Shown one piece after another: positions 19,399 to 29,257 of a stretch of 64,000 nucleotides of DNA (within the stretch, counting starts at the first letter, position 1; each line of letters starts with the position of its first letter). Position numbers and translations under genes: made by a program. The stretch comes from Candidatus Eiseniibacteriota bacterium (GTDB lineage: Bacteria > Eisenbacteria > RBG-16-71-46 > CAIMUX01 > VGJL01), in assembly GCA_963792585.1 (NCBI GenBank), contig CAWBWI010000002.1, positions 256,001-320,000 of the forward strand, written 5' to 3'. Below the pieces are notes generated by a model. It was given only the letters and a program-made list of their open reading frames with translations. It was not told where the DNA came from and did not search any database.

Positions 19399-19653
19399 CG
19401 CGAATCAAGGTAGCGACCCTCCGGCGCCAAGTCCATCCCTTGCCCGTCCCCGGATCGGGTCCGCTTGACGACTTGGGTCCCCGCGCGGTAGTCTGCCCGT
19501 CGTTCCGGAGCCGCCCCCCACGGATCGCCGGATCACGACCGGGTCCGCTTCTCGGGATCGGACCCGATTGGTTGCGGTGGAGGAACGCTCCCCCGCCCGC
19601 CTCCCAGAAACACCTTCGATGCGTCTGTGCAAGGAATTCACGGGAGGCCGGTC

Positions 19654-21903
19654 ATGGTGCATCTTGCGGGCGATATCAAGCCCGAGTTCCTCGACGAACC
19701 CAGATCCCACGCAGTGCTTCGATCCCGCGCGCGCTCCACCGCTGCGGTTCAGCTATCCATGGAAGGAATCCACCGTCCACAGGGGGCTCCCCTCACGAAG
19801 CTCGAGCGAGGCGCGCGAATGCTCCTCGACCGGACGCGTCGGGCCTTCTCCGGCGACGGTTCCGATGTCCAGGGCCGCCTCGAGACGATTCGCGCTCTCG
19901 CGATCGCGCACCCCGATCACGACACCTACGTGGCCGCGTCCGCGTCGCTCGCGCTCCTCCAACTCGAGCGAGGGCACTGGGCCTCGGTCATCGACATCCT
20001 CGATTCAGCCCTCGGCGAAGGGCTACCCCCGACCGATGAAGCATTCAGCGTGTACGTTCAGTGTCTCGCGCGCTCCGAGGTCGGCCCCCCCTCGGCCGTG
20101 GTGACAGGCTGCGCTCGCGCCCTCAAGCTCCTTGCCTTTGCGGAGTTTCCTTCGCTTCGGGCACGGATCCGGCGGCTGGCGCTCGACGGGTACCGGCTGC
20201 AGGGGGATCGCCTGCGGGCTCGCAGGGTTCTGGACCGCATGCGGGATGCGGGGCCTGCGGAGGAGACCGAGGCTCTGCTTCGGATCGCCGAATGCGACCT
20301 CCTCCACTCCGGTGGGCGGCTGGAGGCCGCGGAGGCGGCCGCGCGGGACGCGTGGGCGATCTCGCGCCGTCCGGGGAATCCCGGCGCGCCACATGTCCCC
20401 GGGACGGCCGCGGTCATCCGACGCCTGGCGGCGATTCTCCTGGACCTGCAACGCCCCGACGAGGCCCGGCGCAAGGCGCTCGAAGCAATGGAAGGACTCG
20501 ATCCCGCCTGCCCGAGCGATCGGCGGGAGATCGCCCGGCTTCGCAGCATCATGGCGCGGATCGATCTGGAGGAGAACGATGAGTCGCGCGCGTGGGAGTC
20601 GCTTCGCATTGCCGAGCGCTTCTTTCGGCAGACGCACAGTCACCGCGATCGCGCCGACCTCCTGGTCTTCTGGGGTGAAACGGCCGCCGTCCGTCAAGTC
20701 GAGACGGCGCTCCGCCGGGAGGCGCGCGAAGGGCTCTTCGAAGCCCGGGCGATCTATCGTCGGCTCTGCGCCGAGGAGGGGATCCGGCGTTGTGATCTGG
20801 CCCTCGAATGTCTGCGCGCTCCGGTCGGAAACGGGGATCGTGCGACCGCTCGGCCCCCGCGCCCGCCACGCACGCGCCGTCTCACCCAACTCGGATTCCT
20901 CACGTGCGATCCGGCGGTTCTGCTCGCACTCGAACCACTGGAGGCGTTGGTCGGCACTTCGATCCCGATCCTCATCCACGGTGAGAGTGGAACCGGCAAG
21001 GAGGTTCTCTCCCGCGCGCTCCATCGCGCCGCGGGCGTGCGGGGACCGTTCGTTGCGGTCAACTGCGGGGCGCTCCCGAGTGAACTGCAGGAGAGCGAGC
21101 TCTTCGGACATGTGCGCGGCGCCTTCACCGGAGCGGTCGCCGACAAGGTCGGCCTCTTTGAGGCGGCGGATGGGGGGACTCTCCTCCTCGACGAGGTTGG
21201 GGAGATGACCCCGCGCGCACAGGTGAAGCTCCTTCGAATCCTGGAGCTGGGGGAGGTCCGCCGCGTCGGCGAGACGCGCACACGCAGGGTCCACGTGCGG
21301 GTGATCGCCGCCACGAACGCGGATCTGGCCGAGCAACTGAGGACCGGCGCCTTTCGCCGCGACCTGTTCTTTCGCCTGTGCGGGTTGAAGGTCGCGCTTC
21401 CGGCGCTCCGCGAGCGGCGCGGCGACGTGCCCCTGCTCGCGACCCACTTTGCACGACTCTTCGGCGGCGCCGAGGCCACGCCTTTGTCGATCGCGCCTGA
21501 GGCGCTCGACCGGTTGCTTGTCCACGACTGGCCGGGAAACGTTCGCGAGTTGCGGTTCACGATGGAGAGGGCGGTGGCTCTCTCGCGCGCGCTCGGGCGC
21601 GAGAGAATCGAGGCGGATTGCATCGACCCCGAAGGGCTTCCGGGAGACGCGCTCGAGCCCACGCCCGTCCCGATCACGGAGGATCTGGGGGCCGCAGGCG
21701 GGCTCGACGCCTATCTCATGAACACCGAGCGCCGGTTGATCCTGAAGGCGCTCGAGCAGAACGGCTGGAACCGGACGCACGCGGCCCGCAGCCTGGGTGG
21801 GATCAGCAGGACAACCCTGATCGGAAAGATGAAACGGCTCGGCCTCTTTCCCGAGAGCGGTGGAGAGCCGGCCGCGGGGGCTGAAGCCGTGCCGCTCGGC
21901 TGA
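19654..21903 (+). CDS. Sigma-54-dependent enhancer-binding protein with helical/TPR N-terminus
   Basis: GESGTGKE, ESELFGHVRGAFTGA, LLLDEVGE, FRRDLFFRL, WPGNVREL, Fis HTH; GGGAGG RBS. Confidence 0.93.
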   Translation: MVHLAGDIKPEFLDEPRSHAVLRSRARSTAAVQLSMEGIHRPQGAPLTKLERGARMLLDRTRRAFSGDGSDVQGRLETIRALAIAHPDHDTYVAASASLALLQLERGHWASVIDILDSALGEGLPPTDEAFSVYVQCLARSEVGPPSAVVTGCARALKLLAFAEFPSLRARIRRLALDGYRLQGDRLRARRVLDRMRDAGPAEETEALLRIAECDLLHSGGRLEAAEAAARDAWAISRRPGNPGAPHVPGTAAVIRRLAAILLDLQRPDEARRKALEAMEGLDPACPSDRREIARLRSIMARIDLEENDESRAWESLRIAERFFRQTHSHRDRADLLVFWGETAAVRQVETALRREAREGLFEARAIYRRLCAEEGIRRCDLALECLRAPVGNGDRATARPPRPPRTRRLTQLGFLTCDPAVLLALEPLEALVGTSIPILIHGESGTGKEVLSRALHRAAGVRGPFVAVNCGALPSELQESELFGHVRGAFTGAVADKVGLFEAADGGTLLLDEVGEMTPRAQVKLLRILELGEVRRVGETRTRRVHVRVIAATNADLAEQLRTGAFRRDLFFRLCGLKVALPALRERRGDVPLLATHFARLFGGAEATPLSIAPEALDRLLVHDWPGNVRELRFTMERAVALSRALGRERIEADCIDPEGLPGDALEPTPVPITEDLGAAGGLDAYLMNTERRLILKALEQNGWNRTHAARSLGGISRTTLIGKMKRLGLFPESGGEPAAGAEAVPLG

Positions 21904-21908
21904 GCGCC

Positions 21909-22505
21909 TCAGGCCGGACCACGGGTTCCCACCCATAGCCGCCCCCCGGCAACCGTCTCTTCATCCTCGATCCGGATGCCGGAGCGCTCGAGGGCTGCAC
22001 GGACGGAAGTGGGGGAGTGCAGGCGGAATACGACCCCGCGATTCATCCACCCGAAGAGCCGCGCCACGAGGTGGGAGGGCCTGCTGTCGATGCGCGTCCA
22101 CACGGCGACTTTGCCGCCATTGCGGACGATGCGTGCGATCTCGCCGATCGCGGGCTCGATGGACAGGAGATGACCTAAGACGCCGAAGCTGACTGCGACA
22201 TCCGCCCCACCGTCGCGCAGGGGAAGGCGCTCCGCGTCCGCGCAGACCAGGCGCGCACCGGGATACTGCCGCCGCGCGAGTGCGAGAAACTCGGGGGCAA
22301 GATCGCAACCGATCACTCCCAGCCCGGGTCTCCAGCGGCGGACGATCCGGAGGAATTCGCCGCTCCCGCATCCTATGTCCACGGTCTGCCCGGTCTCCGG
22401 GAGGCGGGAAGTCACGGATCGGATCATTCGACGGTAGCCCGCCGCGGCGAGGAGGGTTGCCCAGAGGTCGTAGAGGCGCGCATTCCTGCGCCCCCAGAGG
22501 CGCAT
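21909..22505 (-). CDS. Class I SAM-dependent methyltransferase
   Basis: VDIGCGSG, GCDLAPEFL, ADAERLPLRDG, EIARIVRNGG. Start 22505 preferred; alternative ATG at 22556. Confidence 0.85.
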   Translation of the reverse strand: MRLWGRRNARLYDLWATLLAAAGYRRMIRSVTSRLPETGQTVDIGCGSGEFLRIVRRWRPGLGVIGCDLAPEFLALARRQYPGARLVCADAERLPLRDGGADVAVSFGVLGHLLSIEPAIGEIARIVRNGGKVAVWTRIDSRPSHLVARLFGWMNRGVVFRLHSPTSVRAALERSGIRIEDEETVAGGRLWVGTRGPA

Positions 22506-22548
22506 TCCCCGCCTCTGCCGCGAAACGGCTTCTTCGTCTTTTTTTGAC

Positions 22549-22578
22549 TTGCGCATGCCCCCTCGCGGTTCCTATTTT
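22549..22578 (+). promoter_or_regulatory. Putative sigma-70 promoter for the intergenic element
   Basis: TTGCGC-18 nt-TATTTT preceded by a T tract (22539-22545) in otherwise GC-rich DNA. Confidence 0.45.
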
Positions 22579-22584
22579 GTGCGT

Positions 22585-22787
22585 ACACGAGAAAGGAGGT
22601 GGTCCATTGATGAGATCTTTGACCTGTGAGGTGCCTGAACGTTAGGCGGCTCGACCGCGGAAGTTCGTTGAAGTAGGCCGAGTCGCCTGCGGAATCCAAG
22701 CAGGTAACCGGAACCAGGGGCTCCCGGAATCGGTCTTCCGGGACGAGGATCCGAGAGGATCTGGAAGAGCCCCTGGTTCTCCTCTTG
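22585..22787 (+). ncRNA. Candidate structured small RNA / mini-ORF transcript with extended 16S complementarity
   Basis: AGAAAGGAGGTGGTCCA (22590-22606); perfect 13-bp stem 22711-22723/22767-22779 enclosing two hairpins, one with a GAGA tetraloop; further stems at 22644-22688; pyrimidine tail. Confidence 0.55.
22610..22645 (+). CDS. Putative 11-aa mini-ORF MRSLTCEVPER
   Basis: ATG directly after a maximal Shine-Dalgarno; in-frame TTG at 22607; TAG lies inside hairpin GCCTGA-ACG-TTAGGC. Confidence 0.45.
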   Translation: MRSLTCEVPER

Positions 22788-22806
22788 TCCCCGCACGCCC
22801 GGGCTA

Positions 22807-23556
22807 TCACCCCTGGTCGGGAATCTCCTGCAACCAGACCCGCAGGGCATCCGACATCTCCTCGTTCCAGATATGTGTTCCTTGGGTCTCCACGAACCGG
22901 ACGGGGAATCCAAGCCGCTCGACTTCATCTGCGGAACTGCGCGCCTGATCGAGGGGAATCACTTCATCGTCCCGGCCGTGCAGAAAGAGGAACGGGATGC
23001 GCGGGATCGACTCGGCCGCGCGATCCGCCCATCCGGGACGGGCGCGCCCGCCGGCAATCACGATTCCACGGAAACGCTCCGCATGTCGTAGCCCGAGGCT
23101 TCCCGCGAAGTAGGCGCCTTGTGAGAAACCAAGGAGCACCATGCGGGTGATGTCGAGATTCCAGGCCGAGGCGCGATCGGGCAGCATCCCCAAGATCCGC
23201 TGTTCGCTCGCACGCAGCGTCGCCCGGAACGTGGGCGTGTCGCCCTCATACACGTACCATGCGTATCCGATCGAGCGGAGGCCACCCACCCTACGTTCCA
23301 TAGGGTACGAGCCTTCGGGCACGAGCCACGCCCACGGCGCGTCGTAGAGGCTCCGGAACCACCGGGCGAACGGCTCGGGCCGCATCCCCATGCCGTGGAG
23401 CGCGAGGACGGTCGGATGCGGTCCCGCGCCCGAGGACGGGAGAACCGTCAGATCGAGCGGCTGGGTGACGAACGGCGTGCGGGCTACCCGGATGCGTTCG
23501 GCCGACAATCCGATTCGGTCGGCGAGACTCGCGCGTCCGGACGGATCTTCCGACAC
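22807..23556 (-). CDS. Alpha/beta hydrolase (phospholipase/carboxylesterase family)
   Basis: [15 protein letters not shown] nucleophile elbow, [15 protein letters not shown] start 8 nt after the mutase stop. Confidence 0.85.
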
Positions 23557-23564
23557 GGCGTTTC

Positions 23565-25226
<1,662 letters not shown>

Positions 25227-26479: not shown

Positions 26480-29257
26480 CTAGCCGCTGCAACCGCTCGA
26501 CGTGCCGCAGTTATCGCAGAACTCGCAGCTCCCGCGGCGGTGCATGAGCGTTCCGCAGAGCGGACAAGGTGATGCATCGGTCTCCATCTGGTAGGCGACG
26601 CGCGGCGCGGACCGACCCGCGTCGGCCTCGGTCGCTATCCCCGGCGCTTCGGGCGACGGATTCGGCATGCCCGTGTCGCCGTTGATACGATCGTGGTGGA
26701 CGATCTCGTGGTCGGGCAGGAACTTCATCGCCAGCCAGCGGAAGATGTAGTCGGCGATCGACTTCGCGAAGCGGATCTCGGGATTGCCCGTGATCCCGGA
26801 CGGCTCGAAGCGTGTGTGGACGAACTTGTCGACCAGCACCTTCATGGGCACCCCGTACTGCAGCGCGATCGAAACCGACGTTGCGAAGCAGTCGACGAGC
26901 CCGGAAACGACGCTGCCTTCCTTGGCCATGACGACGAAGATCTCGCCCGGCTTGCCGTCTTCGTACAGGCCGACCGTCAGATACCCCTCATGACCGCCGA
27001 TCGAGAACTTGTGCGTGATGGAGGTCCGTTCGTCCGGCAATCGGCGACGCGTCGGACGGGCGGCGATCCGCGATGAGGCGTCGCTTCGATTCCCATCCCC
27101 CTCCATCGAGGTGCTCAGCGGCTGGGTCCGCTTGCACCCATCGCGGTAGATCGCAATCGCCTTCAGCCCCAGCTTCCACGCCTCGGTGTAGACCTGCTCG
27201 ATCTCCTCGACCGTCGCTTCGTTGGGCATGTTGACCGTCTTGCTGATCGCGCCGGAGAGGAACGGCTGTGCGGCCGCCATCATCCGGACATGGCCCATGT
27301 AGTGAATGAACCGCTTGCCGTTTCTCGGCTTGAAGGCGCAGTCGAAGATCGAGAGATGGTCTTCGAGCAGATGGGGCGCCCCTTCGATCGTCTCGTGCTT
27401 CTCGATGTGCTCCAGGATCTCCTTGCGCTGCGTATTGCTGTAGCCGAGGTAGACGAGCGCCTCGGGGACGGAGTTGTTGACGATCTTGAGCACTCCGCCG
27501 CCCACCAGCCGCTTGTACTTGACCAGCGCGAGGTCGGGTTCGATGCCTGTCGTGTCGCAGTCCATCATGAAAGCGATCGTCCCCGTGGGGGCGAGCACCG
27601 TCACCTGGGCGTTGCGATATCCCCACCGCTCTCCGAACTCAAGCGCCTCGTCCCATACCCGCCGCGCGCCGTTCAAAAGAATCTCCGGCACCAGGGTCGG
27701 GTTGATCTTCGCGACATGGCTGCGGTGGCGGGCAATCGCGCCCAGCATCGGCTCACGGTTGACCGCAAACCCGCGGAAGGGGCCCATTACCGAGGAGATC
27801 TCCGCCGACATCCTGTACGCCTGACCGGTCATGAGCGCGGTGATCGCTCCCGCAACATGGCGGCCCGCCTCGCTGTCATAAGCCAGCCCCCTGGACATCA
27901 GGAAGGAGCCCAGGTTCGCATATCCCAGACCGAGGGGACGGAAGTCGTTGCTGTTTTGCATGATCCGTGGTGTGGGGTAGGACGCGCTGTCGACGATGAT
28001 CTCCTGCGCGAGGGTCATGATCTCGACAGCGTGGCAGAAGCCGTCCACGTCGAGATCCCCGCCCGGGGTGCGGAACCGCATCAGGTTCAAGCTCGAGAGG
28101 TTGCAGGCGGAGTCGTCGAGGAACATGTACTCGCTGCACGGGTTCGATGCGTTGATCCGCGCCGTGTTCGGGCACGTGTGCCATGTGTTGATCGTGGTGT
28201 CGAACTGAATTCCCGGATCGCCGCAGACGTGCGCGGCCTCGGCCATCTTGCGGAACACGTCGCGCGCCTTGTAGGTGTCCACAGGCTCGTTGCTCAGAAC
28301 GCCCTTCGTCTGCCAAGGTCCATCCGCCTCGACCGCACGCATGAAATCGTCGGTCACGCGGACGGAGTTGTTCGAGTTCTGGAAGAAGACGCTCGAGTAG
28401 GCGTTGCCCGTGAGCGATCCATCGTAGCCCGCGTCGATCAACGTCCAGGCCTTCTTCTCTTCCTCGGCCTTGCAGGTGACGTACTCGACGATGTCCGGAT
28501 GATCGACGTTCAGGATCACCATCTTTGCGGCGCGGCGGGTCTTGCCGCCGCTCTTGATGACGCCCGCGAAGGCATCATAGCCCCGCATGAAAGAGACGGG
28601 TCCCGAGGCCGTTCCGCCCCCGGAGAGCCGCTCCCGGCTCGATCGCAGGGGGGAGAAGTTCGTTCCGCTTCCAGAGCCCCACTTGAAGAGCATTCCCTCG
28701 GTCTTGGCGAGATCGAGGATCGATGCCATCGTGTCCTCGACGGAATTGATGAAGCACGCCGAGCATTGAGGCTTCTCCTCCACCCCGACATTGAACCAGA
28801 CGGGGCTGTTGAAGGAGGCCATCTGATAGAGCAGGAGGTGCTTCAGCTCGTCGTGGAATGCGCCGGCGTCTTCCTCGCTCGAGAAATACCCGAGCTCACG
28901 CCCCCACCTGGAAATTGTGTCGGCGACCCTGCCGATGACCTGACGAAGGCTCGATTCGCGTCCTGACTTGCCCACTGTGCCGTGGAAGTACTTCGAGGCG
29001 ACAACATTGGTGGCGATCATCGACCACGTCCGGGGGAACTCGACGCCGGGCTGCTCGAAGATCGCCTCGCCGCTTTCGTTCGTGATGACGGCGGTCCGCC
29101 TTTCCCAGCTCACGGTGTCGAACGGATCGACACCCGGCCGGGTCATCACGCGGCGGACTTTCAGTCCCTTCGCGCTCGCGTGCGTTCCGGATTCCTCGAG
29201 TGCCGGGGGAACCGCACTCCTACGCGTTCCTTCGTCGCCGATCTCCCTTGGCGTCAT
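26480..29257 (-). CDS. nrdJ: Class II (adenosylcobalamin-dependent) ribonucleotide reductase with C-terminal TSCPD/zinc-ribbon region
   Basis: FNSPVWFN, QCSACFI, GGKTRRAAKM, ASNPCSEY, APTGTI, SGAISKTVNMP, YRDG; C-terminal CPLCG...CDNCG. Confidence 0.96.
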   Translation of the reverse strand: MTPREIGDEGTRRSAVPPALEESGTHASAKGLKVRRVMTRPGVDPFDTVSWERRTAVITNESGEAIFEQPGVEFPRTWSMIATNVVASKYFHGTVGKSGRESSLRQVIGRVADTISRWGRELGYFSSEEDAGAFHDELKHLLLYQMASFNSPVWFNVGVEEKPQCSACFINSVEDTMASILDLAKTEGMLFKWGSGSGTNFSPLRSSRERLSGGGTASGPVSFMRGYDAFAGVIKSGGKTRRAAKMVILNVDHPDIVEYVTCKAEEEKKAWTLIDAGYDGSLTGNAYSSVFFQNSNNSVRVTDDFMRAVEADGPWQTKGVLSNEPVDTYKARDVFRKMAEAAHVCGDPGIQFDTTINTWHTCPNTARINASNPCSEYMFLDDSACNLSSLNLMRFRTPGGDLDVDGFCHAVEIMTLAQEIIVDSASYPTPRIMQNSNDFRPLGLGYANLGSFLMSRGLAYDSEAGRHVAGAITALMTGQAYRMSAEISSVMGPFRGFAVNREPMLGAIARHRSHVAKINPTLVPEILLNGARRVWDEALEFGERWGYRNAQVTVLAPTGTIAFMMDCDTTGIEPDLALVKYKRLVGGGVLKIVNNSVPEALVYLGYSNTQRKEILEHIEKHETIEGAPHLLEDHLSIFDCAFKPRNGKRFIHYMGHVRMMAAAQPFLSGAISKTVNMPNEATVEEIEQVYTEAWKLGLKAIAIYRDGCKRTQPLSTSMEGDGNRSDASSRIAARPTRRRLPDERTSITHKFSIGGHEGYLTVGLYEDGKPGEIFVVMAKEGSVVSGLVDCFATSVSIALQYGVPMKVLVDKFVHTRFEPSGITGNPEIRFAKSIADYIFRWLAMKFLPDHEIVHHDRINGDTGMPNPSPEAPGIATEADAGRSAPRVAYQMETDASPCPLCGTLMHRRGSCEFCDNCGTSSGCSG

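Follow-up and report, generated by a model that had tools for sequence, protein, structure and literature searches.

The closest described system to the locus analysed here is the RNA family Ms_IGR-5, which is listed in Rfam (RF02471) as a non-coding small RNA. In Mycobacterium smegmatis, the sRNA IGR-5 carries an NAD cap at its 5' end and was described as "validated but yet uncharacterized", and the NAD-capped set of this organism is expressed moderately above the median in a plot from which IGR-5 itself was omitted (bioRxiv 2021.12.14.472595). The homologue SLIV_16488 of Streptomyces lividans was validated by RNA-seq (PMC8079986), that of S. avermitilis is a transcription unit with mapped ends (PMC8780764), the transcript was found to be longer than first reported (PMC10454040), and ribosome-profiling reads fall on the homologues of M. 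abscessus and M. smegmatis (PMC4974804). In the supplements of the latter study, ncMab10731 of M. abscessus reaches 3736.6 RPKM in ribosome profiling as opposed to 70.3 in RNA-seq, which is the top profiling value and, with a ratio of 53 followed by 12.5, also the top ratio among the 36 ncRNA rows; this ratio is not proof of footprints, because several tRNAs in the same dataset exceed it (PMC4974804). With erythromycin, ncMab10731 shows a log2FC of 2.67 as the only ncRNA among 287 changed genes, with kanamycin a log2FC of 1.14, and in the accessible part of the source it is absent from the hypoxia and sputum lists, while a coordinate search of supplement file 2 returned no annotated ORF at its place (PMC4974804). 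No account of a mini-ORF, a second Shine-Dalgarno-like motif, a pseudoknot or a function was found in the literature searched, which did not extend to most subscription papers or to the 2013 M. smegmatis original. Relative to that literature, the additions made here are a selected pairing with the 16S rRNA, an ORF kept in phase but neutral in its codons, the second motif, and a fold with a further helix and a pseudoknot.

Several other systems share single features with this family. The consensus of CC2171 (RF01867) from Alphaproteobacteria, the function of which is given as unidentified in the accessible part of bioRxiv 2022.01.24.477521, also opens with an extended 16S complement, followed by a GUG. 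When the window, meaning the whole 64-kb stretch of DNA that was analysed, is compared with CC2171, just the 5' motif aligns, with 15.9 bits as opposed to a cut-off of 75, which places the locus outside that family; judged by its consensus and 5' motif, CC2171 is a possible analogue of the RNA in the window. Leader-peptide attenuators and arrest peptides such as TnaC, ErmCL and the whiB7 uORF combine a short ORF with translation that is coupled to RNA structure, and respond to translation inhibitors. The element in the window differs from them in that it is a stand-alone unit with no regulated downstream gene and with an unselected peptide sequence. As in tmRNA, a short ORF lies inside a structured RNA that has a pseudoknot and engages ribosomes; however, the window element has no tRNA-like domain and possesses its own Shine-Dalgarno (SD) sequence and start codon. 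ARAGORN detected no tmRNA in the window, and the tmRNA of this genome is located at G000:C2:93396-93735 (tag ANTELALAA).

The Rfam model of Ms_IGR-5 matches positions 22585-22786 of the window over its full length (model positions 1-184 of 184) with 62.5 bits against a cut-off of 45. The element is a member of this known family, whose function is open. The sequence-only reading of this DNA had called it an orphan that belongs to no named RNA family; the Rfam scan, which that reading had itself proposed as a check, found RF02471 in full length above the cut-off, and the orphan status, which had been made dependent on there being no such match, is refuted. At E-values up to 10, the only other Rfam families were CC2171, at the score given above, and a lncRNA model (17.7 bits), both far under their cut-offs. 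The remaining description held up well: the promoter, the 17-mer complementary to 16S rRNA, the ATG-initiated ORF, the 13-bp stem and the GNRA loop were all found where they had been placed. A degraded rRNA fragment was rejected, as there is just a 17-nt antisense match and no rRNA family matches in the window, and so was the mRNA of a type I toxin, for which a hydrophobic membrane peptide is expected, whereas the peptides here consist of 11-16 mostly polar residues and their sequence is without selection.

The RNA of about 200 nt occupies positions 22585..22787 of the plus strand, with a 5' end that probably lies near 22585, and Ms_IGR-5-type elements occur in a single copy in this genome. 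Upstream lies a divergent SAM methyltransferase gene on the minus strand (21909..22556, Pfam Methyltransf_11, E 2.7e-20, start uncertain), downstream a convergent esterase gene on the minus strand (22807..23583, Pfam Abhydrolase_2, E 3.1e-13, with the end of the scanned piece as its 5' limit), and an antisense ORF of 118 aa (22572-22928) runs over the element. Neither the methyltransferase nor the esterase is conserved as a neighbour, and the neighbours of 47 loci and the window (94 proteins, heuristic ORF calls) share no function and are found on both strands. That the RNA acts in cis, as leader or attenuator of the gene downstream, is therefore hardly credible: the next gene is convergent in the window and in at least nine relatives, gene orientation excludes this role for the window itself, and the neighbours lack both a common function and a regulatory codon run, although a same-strand gene does follow in some lineages. 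A leader-peptide attenuator in particular was rejected on the convergent next gene, the lack of conserved regulatory codons or of an arrest motif, and the neutral free codons. In four loci of one family (L012, L016, L017, L019), ribD follows the RNA in the same orientation, and read-through or a secondary cis role is possible there. Elsewhere in the window, positions 19627-21903 (plus strand) encode a sigma-54 activator of 758 aa with a long N-terminal part that matches no Pfam family, and positions 26480-29257 (minus strand) hold an ORF of 925 aa that resembles a class II ribonucleotide reductase by eye.

The window element differs from the described members of Ms_IGR-5 in its origin outside the Actinomycetota, in the covariant forms CCUG/CAGG and GACC/GGUC, and in an extra GNRA hairpin. 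The mycobacterial loci L061 and L081 sit between an aminotransferase-IV gene and a THAP4-type gene, a context which we take to be MSMEG_5795/5794, i.e., the IGR-5 locus of M. smegmatis, the identity of the genes being partly assumed. L061 scored 175.8 bits with the Rfam model and 112.8 bits with the covariance model built here, of which it is not a seed, and the window element, which is a seed, scored 110.5 bits with the latter. The mycobacterial members share with the window element the extended SD sequence (SD1), the mini-ORF, the helices P1, P2 and P3 and the pseudoknot described below. In the own phylum of the window, Eisenbacteria, the Rfam model matched 29 of 151 genomes, 11 of them above the cut-off, with 30 loci of which 4 were dropped as spurious. 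Searches by pattern, mostly anchored on the motif GAGGUG, matched 101 of 154 genomes in the same phylum, of which 89 contain true members on reading the matched strings; 81 of 201 genomes in the Actinomycetota, of which 3 look like chance and 7 are marked unpublished; 115 of 201 in the class of Mycobacterium (2 marked unpublished); 15 of 201 in the phylum of locus L056, presumably Acidobacteriota; and 4 of 201 in the Desulfobacterota, with a further homologue in one Sumerlaeota genome. Homologue counts throughout include non-independent kin, and homologues are mostly present once per genome. A genome marked unpublished (G170, with L056 and L219) served as one seed of the model and as the centre of the search in the phylum of L056. 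Covariance-model searches of genomes score few candidates and miss true members, and their negatives were disregarded; a search without the GAGGUG anchor matched 109 of 151 genomes with many chance and control hits and was too loose. Viral contigs gave no matches, and blastn found none in phages or plasmids.

Some of the homologues deviate from the common form. In L163 (G054:C29:18456-18719), P2 contains a very long insertion, and the extension of SD1 has a C where a purine is usual. A second subtype of the RNA (L164-L166, L202-L207, L210, L216, L217, L220-L235) has a long, structured extension at its 5' end and lacks a promoter immediately ahead of it, and Rfam detected none of its 8 tested members at E up to 0.01. 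L213 (G023:C132:5448-5495) is a different conserved string of 48 nt with an SD-like start that recurs in 13 genomes of family f8; it sits upstream of a gene with a signal-peptide-like start and has no Rfam match.

The element is intergenic, and the position of its promoter is conserved. On the plus strand of the window, the promoter (22549..22578) consists of TTGCGC as the -35 box (22549-22554), a spacer of 18 nt and TATTTT as the -10 box (22573-22578), with a T-tract upstream. Of the 38 own-phylum loci of the window's subtype, 36 have TTG at -35 and 26 have YAnnnT at -10; for the 80 pattern loci, these numbers are 73 and 76, respectively. A plain sigma-70 consensus scan of the element returned no promoter site, so that the promoter noticed in the sequence-only reading stands because its position is conserved across homologues and not by a match to the consensus. 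The M. abscessus transcription start, as given in the accessible part of the published data, lies 2 nt before the start of the Rfam model. Actinobacterial loci carry an A-rich tract ahead of the -35 box. Such a tract presumably recalls the WhiB7 promoters. At the 3' end, a terminator scan found no classic U-tract terminators at the element, and the pyrimidine tail that closes the 3' domain is a probable terminator.

Metatranscriptome contigs covering the element start with the library adapter at 22594/22595 in 3 of 4 runs, which come from three studies. In run X2, the contig (22595-22703) reaches a depth of 709.7 compared with at most 12.2 for the other listed contigs; in run X3, the contig is identical over 22595-22717 with a depth no greater than that of the other contigs of this run; and in run X4, it spans the upstream gene and lacks an adapter start. 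If the libraries are dUTP-stranded, as we assume, the orientation of the adapter fits a plus-strand RNA. The contigs hint at a separately transcribed plus-strand RNA, whose ends and strand they do not prove, as they possibly include DNA and derive from a relative whose flanking genes are about 94% identical. A self-contained plus-strand RNA of about 200 nt, as first proposed from the letters of the DNA, is supported by the 16S pairing signature, the RNA contigs and the unrelated neighbours. The RNA contigs of two or three runs also lack one base each at 23732, 23917 and 24064, where a minus-strand gene resembling methylmalonyl-CoA mutase by eye is split across frames, and assembly errors are probable there.

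SD1 (22590..22606) is complementary to the 3' tail of 16S rRNA over 17 nt with one G-U pair. The 16S gene of this genome has the expected 3' tail, and the pairing predicted earlier from a typical bacterial 16S end was confirmed against it. Among 23,291 GGAGG sites in the genome, SD1 is the longest contiguous complement of the tail once the antisense strand of the 16S gene is disregarded; a 16-nt site elsewhere has a duplex energy slightly lower than that of SD1, which is about -30 kcal/mol, and the ordinary strong SD sites of this organism end at a core of 8-10 nt. In the predicted fold of the window element, SD1 pairs with the 3' tail of the RNA itself. To assess its conservation independently, 149 loci were fetched by the downstream motif alone, of which 4 lie too near a contig end and 135 are distinct. 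GGAGG is present at most 50 nt upstream in 134 of these 135, and the last one has GGAGG at the edge. Pairing with the 16S tail extends over at least 14 nt in 128 of the 134 homologues, and the last base of the extension is a purine in 127 of them. Positions facing a U in the rRNA are A or G (e.g., G 124 and A 9 times inside the extension), whereas those facing C are G. Because the positions facing U vary between A and G, the 16-17-nt match is, by its substitution pattern, selected as a pairing.

Just the last of the 17 bases reaches the stem of helix 45, in the numbering that we assume, so that the earlier claim of a match extending into the 3' strand of this helix is correct for that single base. 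The conservation fades at the position which we take to be the mature 16S end, with no conserved complement beyond it, and this pattern points to the mature 30S subunit rather than a precursor as the probable target. It also bears on a factor for 16S 3'-end maturation or for quality control of the small subunit, which would pair with free or precursor 16S rRNA and had been suggested in the sequence-only reading. The purine at the last position in 127 of the 134 homologues speaks for it, as does the location of the match on bases just 3' of helix 45, presumably less accessible in the mature 30S subunit; with the match ending where the mature rRNA ends and the conservation of the ORF left unexplained, we consider such a factor very improbable.

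Downstream of SD1, the mini-ORF (22607..22645, plus strand) runs from TTG at 22607 (12 codons) or ATG at 22610 (11 codons) to the stop codon TAG (22643-22645); the first reading had recognised the ATG version, to which the in-frame TTG is now added. The spacing of 5 nt between SD1 and TTG or GTG represents the commonest start in the own phylum. From 187 loci, one of which was skipped, 170 distinct SD-to-stop sequences were compared. Of these, 163 have an open start codon (ATG, GTG or TTG) whose phase agrees with that of the stop, the other 7 having an in-phase CTG, ACG or ATT, and in the independent set the in-phase start is open in 131 of 134. Start codons number 165 in phase as opposed to 7 and 18 in the other two phases, and stop codons in the free region, which is A/U-rich in the window (22607-22620), number 0 in phase as opposed to 100 and 34. 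The ORF measures 11-16 codons across homologues, and its length classes step by three (41, 47, 50 and 53 in the shifted family; 43, 46 and 49 in the frame-0 family). In L093 and L135, a 3-nt duplication inside the mini-ORF leaves the frame intact and moves the pseudoknot strand.

The codons themselves show a different pattern. In the free codons, pN/pS is 0.98 (92 nearest pairs), changes are distributed 54/56/54 over the three codon positions and G+C is 38%, whereas pN/pS is 0.61 in the C-terminal, structured codons. By these counts, the mini-ORF is kept in phase while its free codons evolve neutrally. The E-V frame is used by 150 of the 163 sequences, most of which read E-V-(A/P)-x-(R/S), so that homologues with an ORF ending in EVxxR, as had been predicted, do exist. 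In 11 sequences the frame is +1 and in 2 it is +2, with the stop shifted to 8 or 10 nt after GAGGUG and the start-stop phase kept; a further +1 pair in the Actinomycetota (G588 and G690) is known from the matched strings only. These data bear on the mRNA of a micropeptide with the C-terminal motif T-x-E-V-(A/P)-x-(R/S), acting freely or as a nascent arrest peptide, the expression or stability of which would be tuned by the structure. Besides a strong SD sequence, a ribosome signal and the lower pN/pS of the C-terminal part, the motif is well conserved among 155 frame-0 sequences (E and V 155 each, T 102, A/P 150, R/S 129). However, GAG and GTG occur without any synonymous variant (155 of 155 each, at positions that were used as the search anchor), the amino acid changes track base pairing in the RNA, with T becoming M alongside the pseudoknot and A becoming P alongside P1, the motif is translated as G-G-G or A-R-C in three lineages, and the free codons are neutral. 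The micropeptide of the sequence-only reading therefore remains unsupported as far as a role of the peptide sequence is concerned, and we regard this explanation as unlikely.

Conservation of an in-phase start and a fixed stop, together with the absence of in-phase stops, implies elongation and termination, and this weighs against a pure 30S sponge or hibernation RNA, in which subunits would be captured at SD1 and hardly ever elongate. The 17-nt duplex with its energy of about -30 kcal/mol, the frequent weak start codons (72 TTG and 29 GTG among 163) and a pseudoknot adjoining the entry channel would suit such an RNA, but it would need neither the strict phase of start and stop nor an ORF free of in-phase stops. 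The sponge proposed in the first reading thus stands in so far as the 5' end is made for pairing with 16S rRNA, and is incomplete in view of the conserved in-phase stop; in its pure form we consider it quite unlikely.

A second SD-like motif, GAGGUG (SD2, 22628..22633), precedes the stop codon by 9 nt in the window. Among the 170 sequences, this distance is 9 nt in 157, 8 nt in 11 and 10 nt in 2, and GAGGUG is kept in all three reading frames; its invariance is partly circular, as most searches were anchored on GAGGUG and on this range of distances. Four of its six bases, the last four, open helix P1 and are explained by it, and the stop codon lies in the base of P2, inside P1. A comparable arrangement is known from the TURBS of caliciviruses and influenza B, where a motif complementary to rRNA, flanked by pairing and placed ahead of a stop codon, keeps the small subunit tethered once termination has occurred (PMC10275272). 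With an rRNA-complementary motif 8-10 nt before the stop in 170 of 170 sequences, retrieved mostly by searches anchored on motif and distance, SD2 would by analogy act like the TURBS motif. TURBS differ in that they target the eukaryotic 18S rRNA and are followed by an ORF for reinitiation, whereas the window RNA would have the 16S tail as its partner and no gene on the same strand comes next.

In the fold of the window element, the stop codon lies in a core of two helices. Helix P1 (22630-22637 with 22701-22709), which contains compensatory pairs across homologues, encloses the stop codon, the hairpin P2 of variable length (22641..22690), whose basal pairs contain the stop, and a conserved junction J (about 22691-22700). 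The 3' domain (22711..22787) consists of the 13-bp closing stem P3a (22711-22723/22767-22779), which encloses the hairpins P3b (22723-22742) and P3c (22747-22762, with a GAGA loop of the GNRA type), and of the pyrimidine tail. The closing stem with its two hairpins had been recognised from the sequence alone, whereas P1, the pseudoknot and SD2 had been missed. The single-sequence fold has a modest z-score of -2.2, and the predicted pair probability of P1 in the window is about 0.6. A covariance model of nested pairs only, built from 32 sequences, aligned 96 of 100 loci. P1, P2 and P3b are paired in 83.3% of cells as opposed to 70.5% after shuffling, and their covariation, in tests inflated by kin, is 0.368 as opposed to 0.146 (0 of 500 shuffles as high, all slid controls lower).

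The pseudoknot joins GACC at 22621..22624 to GGUC in the loop of P3b (22732-22735), with covariation across homologues; in general, the P3b loop is paired to the bases located 8 to 4 nt ahead of GAGGUG, and the pairing begins 12-15 nt after the start codon. It was counted in 72 of the 96 aligned sequences, after 19 without P3b and 5 misaligned ones had been set aside. The five pairs hold in 60, 71, 71, 71 and 54 of the 72, the fifth with four Watson-Crick types, and the best duplex averages 5.10 pairs in length as opposed to 4.25 after permutation (maximum 4.56 of 2000). Of 262 distinct loci, 198 could be anchored; 120 of these have a Watson-Crick fifth pair, where 57 would be expected, and wherever the fourth position is U (10 sequences, including the P3b-less L014) it faces A; the anchor on the UC of the P3b loop makes the two central pairs circular. 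The permutation is weak in the independent set (4.69 as opposed to 4.55, maximum 4.78), and with the automatic alignment the result is modest, 6-7 of 500 shuffles reaching the observed value, which we attribute to the inclusion of sequences lacking P3b and to a loop register that shifts from lineage to lineage. The pseudoknot is absent in 19 of the 96 aligned homologues, and in the P3b-less lineages the RNA terminates with a simple hairpin. In the free RNA, the 5' strand of the pseudoknot could instead form a helix with the end of SD1; this alternative is broken by an A-C mismatch in several homologues (L033, L104, L108, L111, L146), and the pseudoknot was preferred for that reason. Compared with the Rfam consensus structure, P2 and the 3' domain fit, whereas the first helix of Rfam has several non-standard pairs in the window. 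The comparison thus questions the Rfam drawing of the 5' fold and supports a different one with P1 and a probable pseudoknot, which leaves the family membership unaffected.

Junction J has a conserved, single-stranded GAA core, and in the second subtype a 5' hairpin loop is complementary to J, with a covariant form in L220/L221 (by eye). This suggests that J is a pairing surface and leads to another explanation, a translation-controlled regulator in which passage of the ribosome switches or stabilises the RNA, so that exposed J or the 3' strand of P1 would bind an mRNA or protein in trans with no lasting hold on the ribosome. The published rise under translation inhibitors could likewise reflect stabilisation. 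J is variable beyond GAA, however, and such a regulator explains neither an SD1 of 16-17 nt instead of 6-9 nt nor the fixed distance between SD2 and the stop; we consider it doubtful.

At the level of sequence, comparison of the homologues shows a conserved promoter position, the 16S complement, start and stop in phase, neutral codons, the helices P1, P2 and P3, the pseudoknot and the distance from SD2 to the stop. The preferred reading, which we hold with about even confidence, is that this stand-alone RNA of the Ms_IGR-5 family works through the ribosome and that the act of translation, not the peptide, is selected. SD1 would bind the 30S subunit very tightly and place it on a start region rich in A and U. 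The pseudoknot and P1 would begin where the entry channel of the initiating ribosome ends, presumably about 12-15 nt past the start, so that the ribosome would have to melt both in order to move. After 11-16 codons it would meet the stop codon, which is hidden at the foot of P2. SD2 would then lie 5-7 nt ahead of the codon in the P site, a geometry equal to that of SD1 and the start, and could pair again with the 16S tail. Because of the tight loading at SD1, the structure after the start and the renewed pairing of SD2 at the stop, the ribosome may dwell at the start, the stop or both, and the RNA would hold ribosomes while being itself protected or refolded according to translation activity. 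Its most likely role would be part of a translation-stress response; bulk sequestering is limited by one ribosome per RNA, unless the RNA is very abundant. A more specific version, in which these are "ribosome-parking" RNAs of several phyla with a dummy ORF between two SD-type tethers and a pseudoknot or kissing-loop gate that keep a ribosome or 30S subunit at the stop under translation stress, is tentative but possible.

As a family assignment alone, the result is ordinary. The family is, however, present in most Actinomycetes sampled (115 of 201), including Mycobacterium and Streptomyces, and has appeared in transcriptomes for more than a decade while still being called uncharacterised. The comparison makes the family testable, as it specifies where translation would start and stop, the two sites for pairing with rRNA, the helix of the core and the position of a pseudoknot, and natural frameshift variants separate "peptide" from "translation". 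If the specific version is true, a parking RNA would be an RNA-based counterpart of the proteins that act in ribosome hibernation and recycling, as well as a bacterial analogue of tethering by TURBS. If ribosomes do dwell on these RNAs, they would represent a new RNA route to manage ribosomes, tied to the response to ribosome-targeting antibiotics.
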